A DNA stretch of 64,000 nt from the IMG/VR virus record IMGVR_UViG_3300013383_000024, positions 35,392-99,391 of that record; one strand, written 5' to 3'. Each line of letters begins with the position of its first letter. Position 1 is the stretch's first letter. The notes under the pieces were generated by a model, which saw nothing but the letters and a program-made list of their open reading frames with translations, had not been told where the DNA came from and did not search any database. This DNA comes from a virus. Taxonomy: Duplodnaviria; Caudoviricetes. Of this stretch, positions 28,116 through 62,239 are shown piece after piece. The position numbers and the translations under genes were made by a program.

Positions 28116-28688
28116 ATGACAGACTACAGGCAACTTTGTATAGACCTGTTTGGAACAGATGATGAAGATGAAATTCGCAAAATTGCCGCAGAAAAGAACG
28201 CTCGTAATGCCGGGCGAAAGAAAAAGTTTACTCAGCAAGATATCGATGACATGGCAGAGATGCGTTCTCGCGGAGTTACGCTTAAGGATATAGCTGTATC
28301 TTACGACACATCGAGACAGGTTATCAGCAGGTATCTCAATAACGCCCCCGAACCTGGATACACCATGCGTATGGTTTATATGTATAACGCCACGCCTTGT
28401 TCCGATATAGATGTCAATTTCCTCGACAGAAAAATTAGAGTTCGCAATTATACCGATGACCCCCTGCATCGAGCCTTTGGTGTGCTTACTGACCCTACAT
28501 GGAATGATTTTGAGGACTTCCTTGAATACCGCTGTTTCCCTAATACTAGAGGCGATGCTAAGAGGCTTCTTAACCAACTGGGTGTCGATAGCTATGACCC
28601 ATTACAAATAATCGAAAAGACACGCGGCAAAATAACTGACGATAACATGTGGATAAAGGTGAAATACTATGACCGTGGAAACATTTGA
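28116..28688 (+). CDS. HTH domain fused to a HipA N-terminal (HipS-like) domain; putative antitoxin/regulator
   Basis: NAGRKKKF...TLKDIAVSYDTSRQVISRYL HTH; FLEYRCFPNTR...DDNMWIK resembles the HipA N-terminal subdomain. Confidence 0.6.
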   Translation: MTDYRQLCIDLFGTDDEDEIRKIAAEKNARNAGRKKKFTQQDIDDMAEMRSRGVTLKDIAVSYDTSRQVISRYLNNAPEPGYTMRMVYMYNATPCSDIDVNFLDRKIRVRNYTDDPLHRAFGVLTDPTWNDFEDFLEYRCFPNTRGDAKRLLNQLGVDSYDPLQIIEKTRGKITDDNMWIKVKYYDRGNI

Positions 28689-29490
28689 TTTTAATCGTTT
28701 TTCAAGAATTCACACAGAGGAGCATTCCTCTAAAGGCGATCAGCCAAAATGGTATTTAGGTGGCAAATGGTATAAGGCTGATCAAATGGGATACGAATCC
28801 TTGGCTGAGGTCGTCATATCTCACTTATTGAAGAAATCCAATATTGCCGATTATGTGTTATATGAGCCTGTAATTATTAAACACTCCGACAATGAATCCG
28901 TTGGATGTGTAAGCAATAATTTCAAAGAACACCATGAGCAAATCATTCCCTTTGAGCGACTGCATCGAGTCTATAACGGAATTGGCTTAGCTAATGCTTT
29001 GGCAAAGTTCCCGACCGCGCAAGAAAAGATTATTTACACAGTACGCTTCATCGAGGGCATAGCCGGTCTAAAGAACGTCAGTCAGTATATTACAACTATA
29101 CTTGAATTAGATGCATTCTTTTTGAACGAAGATAGACATACGAATAACCTGGCCGTCATAAGAGACGAAGAAACTCATACTTTTCGCTTCTGCCCCATAT
29201 TCGATAATGGACTTGCATTACTCTCTGATATTCGCGACTATCCTCTTTCAGGCGATATATATGAAAGTATAAACAACGTAAAAGCTAAACCATTCGATAT
29301 GAGCTTCGACGAACAATTAATTGCTGCCGAGCAGCTTTATGGCTGTTGCGTGGAATTTAGTTTCACAAAACACGATGTCAACTCCATAATCTCAGAGATT
29401 CGTGATGTTTATGACGAACATCTTCTTAACCGCGTGGAGAGTATAATATACGAACAAATGAGAAAATATCCGATATATTTTAAAAAATAA
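28669..29490 (+). CDS. HipA/CtkA-like Ser/Thr kinase (C-terminal kinase domain only)
   Basis: SKGDQPKW P-loop, WYKAD, DAFFLNEDRHTNN catalytic loop, PIFDNG Mg-binding motif. Confidence 0.85.
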   Translation: MTVETFDFNRFSRIHTEEHSSKGDQPKWYLGGKWYKADQMGYESLAEVVISHLLKKSNIADYVLYEPVIIKHSDNESVGCVSNNFKEHHEQIIPFERLHRVYNGIGLANALAKFPTAQEKIIYTVRFIEGIAGLKNVSQYITTILELDAFFLNEDRHTNNLAVIRDEETHTFRFCPIFDNGLALLSDIRDYPLSGDIYESINNVKAKPFDMSFDEQLIAAEQLYGCCVEFSFTKHDVNSIISEIRDVYDEHLLNRVESIIYEQMRKYPIYFKK

Positions 29491-29732: not shown

Positions 29733-31409
29733 TTATGCCGGTTGTTTTTGGATAATTTCCGGCTTTTCTCCTATAAATCGATAATAAATGTGTATTGTCT
29801 GTCGATAAGGTATCTTCCCTCGAGCTGACACTTTTGTTCCCTCAGGATACACCTTTGGCTCAACAACAATTTTGTCAATGAACATTCTGAGCACTTCACT
29901 TGTTAATACGTCTACATGATCTACCTCGTCGGCTAATGAGAAAAATCTCTTATAATCCGCTTCTATGTCCTCTGCCTCTTTAAGTTTTTGGCTTAAGTCT
30001 TCCATGCTTGACAGCAGCACTTCTGTCTCATCACGATACTTATCCAAAAGCCTTTGACCTCTGTCTTTGGGGAGAGTTCCTGCGCACATATCTTCATATA
30101 TGCGTATTGTCATTTGATCAATTGTATTAAGCCGTTGCTCAGATTCTTCGATTTTTTGTTCTGCCGTTGCTTTAATATTGTTTTCCCTAAACGTTTTTAC
30201 CGCATCGTGCACAATTTCGCGTTTTTGTTCATCAGTCATTGTTAAGAGTTCATTTAACTCTTTTCGTATAACTTCCATTAGAACATCATACTTGATTCTT
30301 GCTCCACCGTTACACTGATGTCGGCTTCGTTTAGGAATATTAAGGCACGTCAAATACCAGTATTTATTCTTTTCTCCTTTGTAGACTGTCCCTCCGCTGC
30401 ATAGCGGGGCTCCGCACGTTGCACAGTATACCAACCCGGCGAACTCATTACGTCTTACATTAGCTATTTTCTCGTAGGCTTCTCGGCGTCTACCTAAGTT
30501 CTTTAATGCCGTATCGAACTCTTCTTGAGTTACAAGCGGTTCGTGGGTATTTAAGGTAACACGCCATTCTTCCCTTGGGAGTTGTCGCTTTGCGTCTGAC
30601 TTTGGGCTTACCTTCTTACTCCTGCCAAGAGCTGTATGACCGAGATAGACTTCATTAACCAATATCCGTTTAACGGTCGTGTTATTCCAGTCATCACTCA
30701 TGTAGTCGGCATTCCCCGAGCGCCGTCCCTCGATTTTAAGAACCCTATACTTCAAAGGTGGGTATACCCCATCGTTAGACAGTGCCTCTGCTATGCGCCA
30801 TGTGGAATAGCCTTGTGCAGCCATGTGAAATATCCTTTGTACGACAGGTGCTGTTTCATCATTAGGGATGAGCTTATGATTATCGTCCGCATCCTTTTTG
30901 TATCCATATGGGGCTCTAAAGCAATATTCTCCATGATCCATCATCGCGTGGAGTGCCGTCTTCACCTTCTTTGAAGAGTCTCTAAGGTAAACATCGTTTA
31001 TGGCAAATTGAAACGGAGCTAACAGATTATCTTGCTCAGAGTCGAAATTGTCATACACCGCAATGTACTGGATACCTCTTTCGGGGAAGTACCTTTCTGC
31101 ATAATAGCTTGATTCGCTCATGTCCCTGCCCAGTCGAGAAAGGTCTTTCGTGATAACCATATCCACCTCATTCTCTGTTTCGAGCGCTCTGATCATCGCC
31201 TGAAACCCTGGTCGTTTAAAATTACCGCCTGAGTAGTCATCATCAACGAATTCCTGGGCTATTGCTATTCTATTCTTTTTACAGTAGTCTTCGAGAATTT
31301 TTCGCTGGTTGGTTATACTTCCTGATTCGCCTTGTTTTTTATCTTCGTTTGATAGCCGCAAGTAAATATAGGCAACTCTTGTTCTTATTTTTCTTTGGTT
31401 CGTTGCCAA
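29733..31409 (-). CDS. Large serine recombinase (integrase)
   Basis: YLRLS catalytic Ser, DDYSG, KDLSRLGRD, recombinase domain PYGY, CATCG Zn ribbon, coiled coil. Confidence 0.95.
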   Translation of the reverse strand: MATNQRKIRTRVAYIYLRLSNEDKKQGESGSITNQRKILEDYCKKNRIAIAQEFVDDDYSGGNFKRPGFQAMIRALETENEVDMVITKDLSRLGRDMSESSYYAERYFPERGIQYIAVYDNFDSEQDNLLAPFQFAINDVYLRDSSKKVKTALHAMMDHGEYCFRAPYGYKKDADDNHKLIPNDETAPVVQRIFHMAAQGYSTWRIAEALSNDGVYPPLKYRVLKIEGRRSGNADYMSDDWNNTTVKRILVNEVYLGHTALGRSKKVSPKSDAKRQLPREEWRVTLNTHEPLVTQEEFDTALKNLGRRREAYEKIANVRRNEFAGLVYCATCGAPLCSGGTVYKGEKNKYWYLTCLNIPKRSRHQCNGGARIKYDVLMEVIRKELNELLTMTDEQKREIVHDAVKTFRENNIKATAEQKIEESEQRLNTIDQMTIRIYEDMCAGTLPKDRGQRLLDKYRDETEVLLSSMEDLSQKLKEAEDIEADYKRFFSLADEVDHVDVLTSEVLRMFIDKIVVEPKVYPEGTKVSARGKIPYRQTIHIYYRFIGEKPEIIQKQPA

Positions 31410-52152: not shown

Positions 52153-52176
52153 AAGCACCCTCGTAAGAGGGTGCTT
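52153..52176. repeat. Hairpin family B, copy 2 (loop inverted)
   Basis: aagcaccctc-gtaa-gagggtgctt. Confidence 0.85.
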
Positions 52177-52186
52177 AAATTTGGTA

Positions 52187-52450
52187 CCACACATCAATTG
52201 TTCAACAGCGAAACCCGCCGCAACTAGTCAATACGGCACGGATAAAAGGAATCTTATCTTTGCGAACAATGGGATAAGTGTGGCTTATGGAATTGCGCCG
52301 GAGTCCAGGGAAAACAAAGTGGGGAAAATCCAGTGGTGTTGTGACCACTGGATTTTCTATATCAAACAACTGGCAGGGCGGCGTATCCTGCATCTCAGAT
52401 TCCTCTTACGAGGAGTGCCGGGAGTCTTTCCGACCTCAGTTGTTATTGAT
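52187..52450. ncRNA. Candidate structured non-coding RNA block
   Basis: Three consecutive stem systems in a ~265-nt gap with no credible ORF. Confidence 0.4.
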
Positions 52451-53696
52451 ACCTTGTCGGTAATTCTGCACAGCCGTATTCTTCTTCGGGCGGCGCAGGA
52501 TTTTTAAACCACGGTTTATTGGCATCAGGGATATACCATCCGTCTTCGATAGCCAATCGCCGAAACATATCAAAGTAGTCTTCTCCTCGGGCAAAATCCT
52601 GTCCGGTTATATTCTTGAATTCCTGCAGCAGTTCTTCATAGTGACCCGGTTTCTCTGCTCTTATATGTTCTTCCCCGTTAACAAGATCGAATACGAGGTT
52701 TGACCATTCGTTGAGCTTGGTGGGATTTTCGTGAGCCTTTTTACGGCGGGCAAGTTCTTTATTATATACTTCTTTACCATTGACGCCATTGATATTCCAG
52801 AAACCATAATCACCACAGTAGCAGAGACGTCCGAAAATCAAACTAGCATATCCCATAGAGTATGCTATGTACCCAGCATAATAAAATCTCAATTCTATCT
52901 TAGATTTTTTATCTTTACACTCGCTGTCCTCTTCTAATAAGTTTCTTATAGAGAGACCTTTGGGATGAACATGCACGACATCGTCCAAAGTAATCTTAGT
53001 TAAGCCGAGTTCTATATGTTTAAAGCGCTCCTCATAACTCATCAATTCTTCTCTGTCGCTTTCCCAACCTATTAAGGCTGCATCAATCAACGCGAGCAGC
53101 TTTGGCTCCAACTCCGGGTCGATTTTCAAATAATTTCGAGGATGTTCATCTAAATAAGGTTTATATCCGATACTCTTTTCGTTTTCGAGTTCAAGCCATG
53201 TGGGCTCGTCAGGATGTTTTAAACAGCATTCTAAGGCTCTATCTGATAAATCCGGTCGCCATCCTTCATATTCAGCAATTTTGATGATAGCCCATTTAAA
53301 ATATTCAAAACCAGTTATCCATTTAAGCTGTTTAGCCTCACGAACATTAATCGGGCGTTTGCTTCCCTCGCACAATGTATTATCATGACGTACACTTGCG
53401 GCATAAGCAGTGAACTCTATATTCTTCTCCGGGTCATCATAGTATCCTGGAATGCTCTTTGCCTTGTCTGCGTCATAAGGCCAATACTTATCTATGCAAC
53501 CGGCAACAAACAGCCCTGCCAAATACCGCTGTCTTGCATGGTCATATTCAAAACGATGCTGTAGAGAATAATCACTTACCACAGGCGTACTCGAAGTCGA
53601 AGCAAATGCAGCATCGTGCCAAGTGTTCTGAATACCTTTGCCTGCAATATAGGAGCCTCCTGCTAATAACCATAAAAAGCTCGAAAATATCCCCAT
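52443..53696 (-). CDS. Hypothetical protein with N-terminal hydrophobic anchor
   Basis: 417 aa; coupled to the MrpR-like gene. Confidence 0.65.
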   Translation of the reverse strand: MGIFSSFLWLLAGGSYIAGKGIQNTWHDAAFASTSSTPVVSDYSLQHRFEYDHARQRYLAGLFVAGCIDKYWPYDADKAKSIPGYYDDPEKNIEFTAYAASVRHDNTLCEGSKRPINVREAKQLKWITGFEYFKWAIIKIAEYEGWRPDLSDRALECCLKHPDEPTWLELENEKSIGYKPYLDEHPRNYLKIDPELEPKLLALIDAALIGWESDREELMSYEERFKHIELGLTKITLDDVVHVHPKGLSIRNLLEEDSECKDKKSKIELRFYYAGYIAYSMGYASLIFGRLCYCGDYGFWNINGVNGKEVYNKELARRKKAHENPTKLNEWSNLVFDLVNGEEHIRAEKPGHYEELLQEFKNITGQDFARGEDYFDMFRRLAIEDGWYIPDANKPWFKNPAPPEEEYGCAELPTRYQ

Positions 53697-53699
53697 CTC

Positions 53700-54650
53700 T
53701 CACACCTTATCCTTATACATTAAATACTTCCATATATAATACTCGTCTTTGAGTTCCGCATTTATCGCGGCTCTACGAATTGTCAGTCTTCCACCAGTCA
53801 ACTTTTCTGTCTTCTTTATCAGGTATGAGAAATCTACATCCATACCGGCTGCCTCAGCTTCATACTGTCTGTAAAAAATTCCGGAGTGCAACACTGAACG
53901 ATAAGAAAGTCTCTTAACCTCCGGATTTTTCTCGTATGCTATTCTTGACTTCTTCTTGATTTCACTCGCTATCCATATACTGTCGGCATCGGCCTTGATC
54001 CCCCGCAGTAATTTATCACTGTTTATTCTATTGCTTGAACGGGTATAATTAGGGTGCTCGTAGATGAACGCCGTACTCTTTAGTACTAGGTCAAATGCCT
54101 CGATTGCTTGGGGATATATTGGGTAGGCATCTCCGTTGTAAAAAAAGATGCGTTTGTCTAAATCAACATCGTCTGCTGTCGCAGAGTTGGCAAAATGTTT
54201 GTTTCTTACTCCGGCGAATGCCATCCACAGAAAACATCTGTATATTACATCTATTGTACGCTTATTTTCTGCATCGAATATTTTGTCAAGCGAGACCTGA
54301 AGATGTATCGGCCCCGATACGATCGTTTTTTTGTACTCGCTTAGTCCTTCCAATATATGATTAATTCCCTCAGACGCGTTAATATCTACATGTCCGGAGT
54401 GGCACCATTCAAGATACCTCAGCATAGATGCTCTATATCTCATTGGCAGCATTTTTAGATTTTCATCTACAAGTTTTTCAAACTTGGCAAGCTCATCGGA
54501 GTCAAATGCTGCGAGATCTTTCCCAAACTCTTTCTCGAGCTCTGATGACAATGCAAACAACCTTTTATATGCATTGTATGCTACCGAACCATGTCTAATA
54601 TATTCCTCGTTATCCCATATAAACCTGGCTTTTATATCTCGATTGTACAT
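53700..54650 (-). CDS. Degenerate tyrosine-recombinase-fold protein, SPbeta MrpR/YopR-like repressor
   Basis: MYN.DIK.RF...LF...E..FGKDL..F...YLEW core-binding N-terminus; FAGVR; the HxxR position reads YRSVLHSG. Confidence 0.65.
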   Translation of the reverse strand: MYNRDIKARFIWDNEEYIRHGSVAYNAYKRLFALSSELEKEFGKDLAAFDSDELAKFEKLVDENLKMLPMRYRASMLRYLEWCHSGHVDINASEGINHILEGLSEYKKTIVSGPIHLQVSLDKIFDAENKRTIDVIYRCFLWMAFAGVRNKHFANSATADDVDLDKRIFFYNGDAYPIYPQAIEAFDLVLKSTAFIYEHPNYTRSSNRINSDKLLRGIKADADSIWIASEIKKKSRIAYEKNPEVKRLSYRSVLHSGIFYRQYEAEAAGMDVDFSYLIKKTEKLTGGRLTIRRAAINAELKDEYYIWKYLMYKDKV

Positions 54651-54665
54651 GATAGCAGCACCTCC

Positions 54666-55106
54666 TTAGCTCTTGTAGCGCGTGCGCGTGTTCATAGCCG
54701 CCACTCTGTTTCTAACCGATATCAGAGTGTCGATATCTAAGAACGCTACAACTCCGGTCGCTACCAAGCTTCCTTCAGCGATTTTCTCCATATATGCATC
54801 AGATAAGGTGCATATGTAGTTGCCGATACGAGCCTTGTTCATTCGCTCGGGGTTCTCGCAAAGAACTATGCTATCTCTAGCAAGACCCGAATCTTCAGCC
54901 ATTACTTTAACATGTGTAGGCTGCGACTCCTTCTTAATTGCTGATGTGAGAGGTACTGCTATAACGTTAGGACTGAACTTATTGCCGATATCGTTCTGTA
55001 TAATCACACCGGGTCTCCACCCGTTCTGTTCGCTGCCCGAGCCTTCAAACTTCATAGTGTATACCTGCCCGATTTTCGGCGTTTCGTTGATTTTTTGTTG
55101 GTACAT
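54666..55106 (-). CDS. MazF/PemK-family endoribonuclease
   Basis: GSEQNGWRPGVIIQND.GN..SP.VIAVPLTS...S.VLCE; GAAAGGA RBS before ATG at 55106. Confidence 0.9.
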   Translation of the reverse strand: MYQQKINETPKIGQVYTMKFEGSGSEQNGWRPGVIIQNDIGNKFSPNVIAVPLTSAIKKESQPTHVKVMAEDSGLARDSIVLCENPERMNKARIGNYICTLSDAYMEKIAEGSLVATGVVAFLDIDTLISVRNRVAAMNTRTRYKS

Positions 55107-55144
55107 GTGGTATTCCTTTCTCAAATAATCTCTTATCTGAGCAT

Positions 55145-55173
55145 AGAATACCATAGTTTTTCCGCTTTGTCAA
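55145..55173 (-). promoter_or_regulatory. Promoter of the mazF-mrpR-like operon
   Basis: TTGACA, 17-bp spacer ending TGg, TATTCT. Confidence 0.65.
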
Positions 55174-55496
55174 GACCTTTTTTTCGAAGTGGGGAAAAAT
55201 ATGTAGAAACTCTTCGGATGCATTGAGTCCCTAGCTCGGCAGACTAGTTCGATTTCAATATTTCCGAAAAAATCTTCGCTATACTTTACTTTTTCAACAC
55301 ATTTGAATTTAACGCTGCTACTACCGACTGATAGTCTCACAGCGTGAGCCTCTGCACAAACGGCTATTTTCTCAAGCTCCATTTTTAATTCGCAAAATTG
55401 TCTGGCTGTTTCATCTCTCCAATTTGCGATATACCTTATCTCATTCCTTCCTTTGCAAAACTCTTCAAATTCACTAAGTGTCATTTCTTTTTTCAT
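55170..55496 (-). CDS. Hypothetical protein
   Basis: 108 aa; GGGAG RBS. Confidence 0.6.
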   Translation of the reverse strand: MKKEMTLSEFEEFCKGRNEIRYIANWRDETARQFCELKMELEKIAVCAEAHAVRLSVGSSSVKFKCVEKVKYSEDFFGNIEIELVCRARDSMHPKSFYIFFPTSKKRS

Positions 55497-55563
55497 ACTC
55501 TCGCTCCCTATGAGTCGATATCTCTAACTCGGAGATTATCTCGTCAGTTATTATCTAATTAAG

Positions 55564-55593
55564 ATATTATCACACTTAATAATCTCTTGTCAA
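55564..55593 (-). promoter_or_regulatory. Promoter with AGAT(A/T)AT-rich operator-like region
   Basis: TTGACA-18-TAATAT with extended TG; palindrome GAGATTATCTC downstream. Confidence 0.6.
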
Positions 55594-55613: not shown

Positions 55614-55844
55614 TTACTTTGTAGCATCATTGAGAGCGTCTATGGCACTATCGCAATAGTCGTATGCCCTTTCTAAGGCATCACATGCATCCTCCATTCG
55701 TACATATCTTTCACTTGCCTGGAGTGCTTCAGGAATATTATCCATGCTATCTTGTTCCTCGAAGCGGACATCATCGATTATGCCATAAGCCTTCTCGATG
55801 AAATCAATCGCCCGGTGGAGCTTCCCTCTCCTCTTGTCGTTCAT
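55614..55844 (-). CDS. Conserved helical phage protein (MN..RR family)
   Basis: EEQDSMDNIPEALQ.SER motif. Confidence 0.75.
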   Translation of the reverse strand: MNDKRRGKLHRAIDFIEKAYGIIDDVRFEEQDSMDNIPEALQASERYVRMEDACDALERAYDYCDSAIDALNDATK

Positions 55845-56086
55845 TTAACCTCCTTCGATTTTGTACTGCAGTTTTTGTGTTCATTGCTTTCCTCCCATAA
55901 TTCTTCAACGGCCATTTGTAATACGCGAGCTATCCTTATAGCCAGTAGAACATTCGGCAGCCTTTTACCGGACTCTATCTCCGCCACAGATGAATTGCCC
56001 GTTCCGGCTTGCGCCGCCAATTCTCTCTGTGTAAGGCCATGATATTCTCTATAGTATCCAACTCTGCATATCACTGTCGCTCTCAT
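55841..56086 (-). CDS. Cro/XRE HTH regulator
   Basis: LTQRELA...SSVAEIESGKRLP...IARVL...VEELW. Confidence 0.85.
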   Translation of the reverse strand: MRATVICRVGYYREYHGLTQRELAAQAGTGNSSVAEIESGKRLPNVLLAIRIARVLQMAVEELWEESNEHKNCSTKSKEVK

Positions 56087-60573: not shown

Positions 60574-60983
60574 ACAATAATTCTCCCGGTCTCATATGTT
60601 TCTTTGAATATATCATCGATCTCTGCTGCTACCTCCGGAGGCAGCCACGCACTGGCTTCTTCGTTTCCCCAGTACAGCTCAACGCAATTCCCGCCCGTAT
60701 TTACACAAATGTTCGGACCGCCGCATGCAATCATCACGGTTACGCTGCGATATTCATGGTCTCCGCCTATAGCGTATTCAACATCATATATGTACTGGTC
60801 GTCAAGTGGAGCTATCGGTTCCCACTCATCTTCCGATTCCATTTCGCCGCACTCACAAACACCTACCGGGTCAGTAAATACCTCGCCGCACTCCAAACAG
60901 CGCTTTACCCTGCCTTCGTAGCACGCTACCAAATGATCTCTGATCCGCTCGCAGGTTTTATAATTTTCCTCACTCATTTTCAT
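60570..60983 (-). CDS. Zn-ribbon hypothetical protein
   Basis: CLECG...CECG; ACGGPN motif. Confidence 0.65.
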   Translation of the reverse strand: MKMSEENYKTCERIRDHLVACYEGRVKRCLECGEVFTDPVGVCECGEMESEDEWEPIAPLDDQYIYDVEYAIGGDHEYRSVTVMIACGGPNICVNTGGNCVELYWGNEEASAWLPPEVAAEIDDIFKETYETGRIIV

Positions 60984-62149
60984 TGCTCACTCCATATTAA
61001 GCTTGACACGCAATCTGCTATTATGCGTGCTCCTTCTTGAATCTCAGCTAATGTGTTGTATGTTGAAAAAGATATTCTCACCGTACTGCGAGCCTGCTCT
61101 TCGGTAAGTCCAATTGCAAGCAGCGCAGGGCTGGGCTTAATATCATGTGCTCTACAGGCAGAACCGGCAGATATACATACTCCGTGCATATCTGCTAAAA
61201 GCACCAAGGTCTGAGCATCTACGCCATCAAAACGCAGGCTCAAGACCTTGGGCACGCAATTCACCAAGTTTCCATTGATATGCATAATATCGGCCAATCC
61301 GTTTGTGCTAAGACACGAGCGAAGTATTTGGAGAAATTCAGATCGCAGTTTTGCAACATACTCCATATTGGCCGCAAGGTTTTCTTTTACTATCCTGCAC
61401 GCCTCTCCAAATCCAACGATTCCTGCTACATTCTCAGTGCCGCCGCGAAGTCCGAACTCCTGATCGGCACCGCCGCATATAAGTGGATCGTAACCGTCCG
61501 CATTCCTCACATAGAGAGCTCCGACGCCCTTCGGGCCGTGTATTTTGTGCGACGAAAAAGAAGCCGACTGACAACCTATATCCCGAACGTTAACGGGAAC
61601 GGAGCCTAAAGCCTGTACGCAGTCAACATGTAAGTTGATTCCCTTTTCATCACATATCTTCGCAAGTTTGTCTACTTCAGTCACAGATCCGATCTCATTG
61701 TTTACAAACATAATAGCCGCTGTGCGTATATGATTCCCTCCGGTATAACGCTCAAAGCTATCTATGTAGTCTGCAAAGCCTTCAGGAGTGACTACGCCAT
61801 GGCTATTGACGGGAAGTCTATCGTTCACCATCCACTCAAAACTATGAGCTGCCTCTATTACCGAGTCATGCTCCATCTTAGTGGTAACAATCGGGCGGCT
61901 CCATCTCTGTCGAATAGAAAACGCAAGGTTGTTCGCCTCACTGCCACCTGACGTAAAAATCACTTGGTCTGGGCTGCAATTAATAAGCTCAGCCGCTTGC
62001 TCTCTTGCCCTCGCGACAGCGAGCTTCGCCTCTCTGCCAAGGCCGTACAAAGCCCCAGGATTACCATACTGCTCTTTAAGATACGGCAGCATCGCGTCGA
62101 AAACTCTGTCGTCGATCCTTGTGGTAGCGGCATTATCAAAATAAATCAT
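60980..62149 (-). CDS. iscS: Cysteine desulfurase (IscS/NifS, PLP-dependent)
   Basis: YFDNAATT, FTSGGSEAN, HVD.VQ, SSHKIHGPKG, GTEN, SAGSAC; AGGAGG RBS before ATG at 62149. Confidence 0.95.
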   Translation of the reverse strand: MIYFDNAATTRIDDRVFDAMLPYLKEQYGNPGALYGLGREAKLAVARAREQAAELINCSPDQVIFTSGGSEANNLAFSIRQRWSRPIVTTKMEHDSVIEAAHSFEWMVNDRLPVNSHGVVTPEGFADYIDSFERYTGGNHIRTAAIMFVNNEIGSVTEVDKLAKICDEKGINLHVDCVQALGSVPVNVRDIGCQSASFSSHKIHGPKGVGALYVRNADGYDPLICGGADQEFGLRGGTENVAGIVGFGEACRIVKENLAANMEYVAKLRSEFLQILRSCLSTNGLADIMHINGNLVNCVPKVLSLRFDGVDAQTLVLLADMHGVCISAGSACRAHDIKPSPALLAIGLTEEQARSTVRISFSTYNTLAEIQEGARIIADCVSSLIWSEQ

Positions 62150-62239
62150 GTGTACCTCCTTGTAACACACCGGACAATACCCCGTGATTTCGCCAAACTG
62201 TATGTTCACATGATGCCACATCTTGGGCAGCGAATAATA

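Follow-up and report, generated by a model that had tools for sequence, protein, structure and literature searches.

A phage-borne MazF gene paired with an MrpR/SroF-family repressor gene: a putative lysogeny-control operon in SPbeta-like phages of gut Clostridia

We analyzed a stretch of 64,000 nt (hereafter, the window) from a 99,391-base virus record (IMGVR_UViG_3300013383_000024), in which the gene for a MazF-type RNase lies downstream of a 108-codon open reading frame (ORF108) and directly upstream of the gene for a relative of two Bacillus phage repressors, MrpR (YopR) of SPbeta and SroF (phi3T_97) of phi3T. Judged from sequence, this locus probably serves lysogeny control in a large family of SPbeta-like temperate phages whose hosts are gut Clostridia, mostly Oscillospiraceae, and on our best reading a phage-encoded RNase replaces the host MazEF that phi3T borrows. 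We think it rather probable that the phage MazF actively cuts RNA at UACAUA and is produced along with the repressor; it would remove lytic mRNAs, stop read-through past mrpR and damp its own synthesis. The record has an SPbeta-like gene set, comprising a serine integrase, DNA polymerase III alpha subunit (E 4e-17), primase, DnaB and a YonO-like RNA polymerase (E 7e-32). Relatives were viral genomes of 114–139 kb, within the range of about 100–140 kb used to define SPbeta-like phages, and prophages in metagenome-assembled genomes (MAGs) mostly of Oscillospiraceae.

The original prediction described the second protein of the pair as an MrpR/YopR-like repressor with a dead integrase fold, and our searches agreed. 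This 316-aa protein contains the MrpR_N_CB domain (PF22822, 46.2 bits against a Pfam cut-off of 27), and its family profile retrieved only YopR/MrpR among PDB sequences. The best structural matches of its AlphaFold2 model (pLDDT 89) were MrpR, YopR and phi3T SroF, which made up the top 7 matches in Foldseek and the top 5 in VIA (Z 13.6–14.8, 265–277 aligned residues; rmsd 8–11, from domain motion), with Xer and Cre ranking lower; the possibility of an active, unrelated recombinase was not borne out. A profile of 142 family sequences also aligned phi3T SroF over most of its length (34 bits). HxxR occurred in none of the 142 members, which thus lack the R-K-HxxR-H/W-Y active site of recombinases, and the position of the first catalytic Arg was variable (R149 in the window, Arg not being among the four commonest residues), while Tyr304 was invariant. 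MrpR itself shows the same pattern of catalytic-residue loss (PMC10516654). As originally noted, integration is covered by a large serine integrase (29733-31409, minus strand), so the recombinase-fold protein is not needed for this purpose. The homology is clear, and the protein would function as an MrpR/SroF-type master repressor. Across the wider family, 813 repressor clusters at 50% identity scored E < 1e-30, mazF pairing being checked for part of them; INPHARED contained no MrpR match. An operator-like word, TCAA-N3-AATT, was repeated in 4–6 intergenic copies in related genomes (G410, G412, G406 and G003), and in inverted form overlapped the mazF promoter in 35 of 62 loci (1 expected). The word, a likely operator, also follows a site 3' of mrpR described below. 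De novo and position weight matrix searches found no clear copies in the window's genome, and no SOS box was seen near the locus.

The phage MazF matched PF02452 with 84 bits (cut-off 23), and its closest structures were NdoA-type enzymes of Bacillus and Staphylococcus. It has a PemK/MazF fold with the catalytic Arg and Thr: R31-P32 of the RP motif and T54 of the PLTS motif, both said earlier to look intact, align to R25-P26 and T48 of the B. subtilis enzyme. The roles of these residues have been described (PMC8634880, PMC7354611). Among 61 phage MazFs averaging 62% identity, the equivalents of B. subtilis R25, P26 and T48 were invariant and those of G18 and E20 more than 90% conserved. R31, T54, K59, H65, S79 and E84 were 100% conserved in the same set. 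The hallmark of the phage proteins is C83-E84-N85-P86 in place of LEQI, together with an extra C-terminal helix (residues 125–138), and in a quick tree they formed one long-branched clade apart from host-like MazFs (SH-aLRT 96). MazF was more conserved than MrpR (62% vs 43%), and pairwise identities of the two proteins tracked each other (Mantel r 0.44, permutation maximum 0.32). The mazF genes of the window and of related locus L106 differed by 28 synonymous and 4 non-synonymous codon changes, and mazF is under strong purifying selection.

The pairing itself, whose conservation across phages had been proposed as a check, proved general in this clade. When the repressor was used as seed, 173 of 186 loci contained mazF. 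Of the 13 without it, seven stop at a contig edge and the others represent four lineages, one with an internal mazF deletion. When MazF was used as seed, mrpR was directly downstream in 77 of 79 loci, and with distant repressors the pairing was seen in 8 of 8 informative spot checks. Many loci were near-duplicates (63 remained at 85% MazF identity), and related sequences are non-independent observations. The pairing is specific to this repressor clade because remoter MrpR-like genes in G130, G226 and G227 had no mazF alongside. Frameshifted or internally deleted mazF genes preceded an intact mrpR in L044, L168, L127, L162 and L170, the last of which kept the promoter, the last 40 mazF codons and the UACAUA site at the mazF-mrpR junction (see below). 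A MazF of this clade also occurred in a complete 114-kb phage (L238; G407:C1:31283-31714) followed by NAD-salvage-like genes instead of mrpR; this genome contained a weak MrpR-like match elsewhere, and its UACAUA enrichment was still 1.97x. A second mrpR-like gene stood in tandem after the first in L101. A MazF-MrpR fusion was rejected as Rosetta evidence, since the single case (L152) had a one-base insertion relative to L024 and is probably an assembly error or a one-off frameshift; P0161 of locus L380 was rejected as well, being a duplication of the MrpR N-terminal domain. A search for longer forms returned one MazF-integrase protein.

The RNase role is favored by the distribution of one hexamer. 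U^ACAUA is the reported six-base MazF site in B. subtilis, Listeria and S. aureus, a specificity conserved in Bacillota (10.64898/2026.08.06.743204). When all 4- to 6-mers were compared with synonymous-codon shuffles, no motif being presupposed, no sense 6-mer was more enriched in downstream genes than TACATA (109 observed vs 40 expected). It was also frequent in ORF108 genes (19 vs 4.9; n = 40), and depleted in mrpR coding sequence (1 vs 6.8). The antisense word was not comparably enriched in downstream genes (39 vs 27), nor was TACAT[CGT], i.e., the signal was exact to the sixth base. A motif contrast of the kind suggested originally as a test was found, with UACAUA enriched in other phage genes and nearly absent from mrpR coding sequence. 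In the window's genome sense TACATA was 1.88x enriched (rank 3 of 4096 6-mers), compared with 2.48x (rank 1) in the phi3T control, 1.5–2.5x in other mazF-containing phages, 1.3–1.5x in two mazF-less phages and 0.95–1.6x, with small counts, in host DNA. The sense/antisense ratio differed between mazF-containing phages and hosts (p = 5e-5). Gene leaders contained 36 sites (about 11 expected) in eight mazF-containing genomes, and 2 (3.3 expected) in two mazF-less genomes. From this genomic footprint and the invariant residues we infer that the phage MazF is an active RNase cutting U^ACAUA.

Sites were also found at defined positions around mrpR. An exact TACATA was located within 60 nt of the mrpR start in 37 of 58 non-redundant loci, in 35 of them at 20–29 nt, just before the Shine-Dalgarno sequence; it was the commonest 6-mer in this leader after AGGAGG, and its flanks were unrelated among loci. 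A second TACATA followed a strong hairpin 3' of mrpR in 26 of 57 loci, often replacing a good U-tract, and was itself followed by the operator-like word. Between these positions, mrpR coding sequence held 2 sites in 55 kb. In phi3T, a hairpin-TACATA comes directly after sroF and is followed by sequence matching the published SroF box (L344:24776-24830), and phi3T_93-97 are site-free. Three mazF-less lineages had neither bracketing site (one has TACACA at the 3' position), which is suggestive only as a link to MazF because about 31% of mazF-containing loci (about 19/62) also lacked both. Unmasking of the mrpR Shine-Dalgarno sequence by cleavage at the junction was rejected, as the predicted gain (0.41 to 0.70) was matched in site-less loci (0.34 to 0.60).

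On the minus strand, the locus reads ORF108 promoter, ORF108, mazF promoter, mazF, a gap of 15 bp, mrpR, a gap of 3 bp, a third reading frame (ORF417) and a hairpin, and the features are as follows (all on the minus strand).
55564..55593, sigmaA-like promoter of ORF108, near-identical in related loci L106 and L003
55170..55496, ORF108, a separate transcription unit with homologues in 163/186 loci
55200..55205, UACAUA near the 3' end of ORF108
55145..55173, mazF-mrpR promoter (TTGACA-17-TATTCT with TG), its -35 box overlapping the ORF108 stop codon
54666..55106, mazF of the phage clade, 146 aa, identified by PF02452 match and residue conservation
54813..54818, UACAUA within mazF, present in L106 too, rare in relatives and possibly due to chance
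54661..54666, Shine-Dalgarno sequence of mrpR, abutting the mazF stop; the window lacks the junction UACAUA of most relatives
53700..54650, MrpR/SroF-family repressor gene, 316 aa, degenerate tyrosine-recombinase fold by Pfam and structure, no UACAUA
52443..53696, ORF417, accessory, weakly hydrophobic N-terminus, homologues in 7/186 loci, no family
52866-52871, the single UACAUA in ORF417
52153..52176, terminator-like hairpin (10-bp stem, -17.6 kcal/mol), probable transcript end
29733..31409, large serine integrase

The promoter and the 15-bp gap to the next ATG were both present as first described. Although promoter-like sites of this type are common in shuffled sequence too, a sigmaA-like promoter was found ahead of mazF in 60 of 62 related loci, about 40 nt before its start. 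This start is ATG 55106, behind the Shine-Dalgarno sequence GAAAGGA; a 162-aa frame from 55154 was rejected as it begins inside the promoter. The gene spacing, and the finding of no terminator between the genes, point to co-transcription of mazF and mrpR. The third protein, ORF417, had been called membrane-anchored. The gene is present, but the N-terminus of the protein shows no more than moderate hydrophobicity (best mean over 17 residues 1.41), searches found no family, and the gene is a lineage-specific accessory passenger.

In agreement with the original prediction, no MazE, AbrB or RHH (ribbon-helix-helix) gene was found next to the phage mazF. A co-transcribed upstream MazE, which defines a type II module, was absent, the mazF promoter being about 40 nt before the start, and no phage ORF contained a MazE-like motif. 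The idea that ORF108 is a non-canonical antitoxin found no support: a separate promoter precedes it, it contains no MazE motif, and lineages from which mazF has disappeared still retain it. ORF108 is conserved but fast-evolving and beta-rich, diverging to 10–30% identity, and its homologues include those in mazF-less loci. It matched no Pfam family; its Atlas model resembled YojF/DUF5335 folds (TM 0.64–0.68), and it was rejected as a Sar homologue, having no profile match and not being acidic. Regarding hosts, all five lysogen MAGs examined (gut Clostridia) had a canonical core mazF with no adjacent mazE, and titration of host MazE, another role originally offered for the phage protein, therefore found no support. 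Orphan mazF genes are known in some Bacillota. One of the chromosomal mazF genes of these five MAGs (G001–G005; L305–L309) was directly downstream of alr. MazF-like proteins with a Cys-rich C-terminal extension were also seen beside sigma-factor-like genes in host mobile elements (L286:2019-2582, L310, L311). Single phi3T queries, which may miss distant homologues, gave no AimR, AimP/AimX, SroA-E or Sar hits in the phage genomes, and an AimX query, with no positive control, gave no match in the five host MAGs.

We infer the following direction of effect. MazF expressed with the repressor would degrade the site-rich mRNAs of replication and other lytic genes and spare site-free mrpR, thereby biasing the phage toward lysogeny and stabilizing it. 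It would do the job of host MazF in phi3T, without relays of MazE mimics. The hairpin-UACAUA 3' of mrpR would sever read-through into lytic genes, and a cut at the junction would separate mazF from mrpR and would probably limit MazF synthesis, since in B. subtilis a MazF cut lowers expression of the upstream gene more than that of the downstream gene. Such a self-damping loop could explain why a missing antitoxin is tolerated. A bolder form, which we offer only tentatively, is that MazF has been internalized as an antitoxin-free, self-limiting RNA-processing switch that destroys lytic mRNAs and cuts its operon transcript before and after mrpR; lysogeny would then be set by programmed mRNA processing and not by an antitoxin or a host toxin.

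Several observations weigh against these proposals. The window's own lineage is among those in which neither bracketing site is present; its ORF108, mazF and ORF417 carry one site each. The invariant N85 and P86 differ from Q79 and I80 of B. subtilis and might alter activity. Genome-wide sense/antisense ratios did not differ significantly between mazF-containing and mazF-less phages (Fisher p = 0.27, with two mazF-less genomes). A canonical MazF is also encoded by the hosts and could by itself account for the sites, and we identified neither a MazF inhibitor needed for lytic growth nor an inducer. The notion of a self-contained switch is thus unproven. In addition, the junction site could reduce MrpR instead of favoring it, because a MazF site in the 5' untranslated region (UTR) or nearby lowers expression of the downstream gene too in B. 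subtilis.

The presence of an apparently antitoxin-less MazF in the hosts also admits a different role, in which the phage protein has little or no activity of its own but binds host orphan MazF, as a heterodimer partner or a competitor, and tunes it, while host MazF cuts the sites. The dimer-forming region of MazF includes or lies near the C83-E84-N85-P86 segment and the C-terminal helix, and these phages, in which no MazE-like mimic of the AimX/YosL kind turned up, would need another handle on host MazF. We regard this role as unlikely: catalytic residues should be lost from a decoy, as they were from MrpR, whereas six residues are 100% conserved over 61 sequences.

A second alternative, quite unlikely in our view, is that an active RNase acts mainly as a rheostat on the repressor, the cut 20–29 nt before the mrpR start lowering MrpR so that the prophage stays inducible or lysis is promoted. 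The strongest conserved site does sit in the mrpR leader, and sites in the 5' UTR lower reporter output in B. subtilis. However, sites are purged from mrpR coding sequence but enriched in replication genes, the upstream gene is lowered more than the downstream one, and about a third of loci, including the window, keep the pair without a junction site. Improbable, too, is a MazF devoted to superinfection exclusion or host remodeling in the lysogen, acting on site-rich RNA of incoming related phages and not in the initial lysis-lysogeny decision. Lysogens would make MazF along with the repressor, all relatives have many sites, and MazF restricts antitoxin-less SPbeta and phi3T non-abortively (10.1101/2023.04.27.537455); but this leaves unexplained the sites bracketing the phage's own mrpR and their loss in mazF-less lineages, and exclusion is compatible with an RNase acting for lysogeny as a side effect. 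Finally, it is very improbable that TACATA belongs to a DNA operator or merely reflects AT-richness, mazF being a passenger or else the toxin of an ordinary toxin-antitoxin pair completed by ORF108: the mrpR 3' site does abut the operator-like word and ORF108 is upstream in most loci, but the enrichment concerns the sense strand of coding sequence and holds to the sixth base, the junction flanks are unlike the operator, and ORF108 has a separate promoter and is still present where mazF is missing.

Repression by MrpR/SroF and MazF-dependent lysogeny are already known in Bacillus phages. MrpR and SroF (PMC10516654; 10.1101/2025.11.27.690993) share with the window protein the MrpR_N_CB domain, the full-length recombinase fold, Tyr304, a Gly matching MrpR G136 and the loss of HxxR, at 14–16% structural identity, and both SPbeta and phi3T, like the window's phage, have a separate serine integrase and a YonO-like polymerase. 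The hairpin-UACAUA after the repressor gene of phi3T is also found in many relatives of the window's phage. In contrast, the repressor gene is preceded by sroA-E in phi3T and by mazF here, the hosts are clostridial, and phi3T queries found no Sar, SroE, AimR or AimX homologue. MazF RNase activity is needed for phi3T lysogeny (PMC10769878; 10.1101/2023.04.27.537455), and both systems combine MazF-site-rich phage transcripts with a site-free repressor coding sequence. Yet the RNase of phi3T is host-encoded and tuned by MazE mimics (AimX, YosL) and MazE binders (SroA/SroB), whereas in this family the phage itself encodes the RNase within the repressor operon, most relatives have a site where mazF and mrpR meet, and the examined hosts have no adjacent mazE. 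As for the enzyme, NdoA/EndoA MazFs of B. subtilis, S. aureus and Listeria (PDB 4MDX; 10.64898/2026.08.06.743204) have the same fold (TM 0.87 by target, about 40% identity), and the equivalents of G18, E20, R25, P26 and T48 are kept in the phage protein, which differs in its lack of MazE, CENP for LEQI, an extra C-terminal helix of about 25 residues and its separate clade. Orphan MazFs also occur in Psychrobacillus phage Perkons and in Enterocloster and Lactobacillus phages, with no evident antitoxin (checked for Perkons); unlike the window-phage family, Perkons MazF is host-like and has no MrpR alongside. In the searchable literature, subscription journals being outside its coverage, we found no description of an MrpR operon that includes a phage mazF and has conserved cut sites around mrpR.

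Further genes were noted around the locus and elsewhere in the window. Upstream of ORF108, 55614-56086 (minus strand) encodes a Cro-like helix-turn-helix (HTH) protein of 81 aa and a helical protein of 76 aa (phrog_4068) that is conserved, with 149/186 loci having it; both probably belong to the same regulatory region as ORF108. A divergent CI/LexA-like gene (HTH and S24 peptidase) was upstream of ORF108 in 31 of 63 relatives (e.g., L392:535-1329, minus strand), about 1.1–2 kb upstream of the mazF stop, and absent from the window's genome. In relatives with this gene, a conserved antisense sigmaA-like promoter overlaps the ribosome-binding region of ORF108. The CI/LexA-like gene suggests an induction input in these phages. 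An IscS/NifS-like cysteine desulfurase gene (60980-62221, minus strand) was near the mazF-mrpR locus in 22 related loci as well. Between the lysis genes and the integrase, 28116-29490 (plus strand) contains an HTH gene and a PADLOC PDC-M03A-like gene, with TACATA in the leader of the first gene of this pair.

With these phages, MrpR/MazF control extends beyond Bacillus and takes in a large group that infects gut Clostridia. How MazF promotes phi3T lysogeny was stated to be unresolved (PMC10769878), and the present family reduces the system to two genes, with cut sites conserved in position, such that the mechanism is directly testable by single-base mutations; it also points to the overlooked hairpin-UACAUA after phi3T sroF. 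If our reading is correct, a toxin has been domesticated as a phage regulator without an adjacent antitoxin. This suggests that a tool of dormancy control which Bacillus phages borrow from the host may here be built into the virus.

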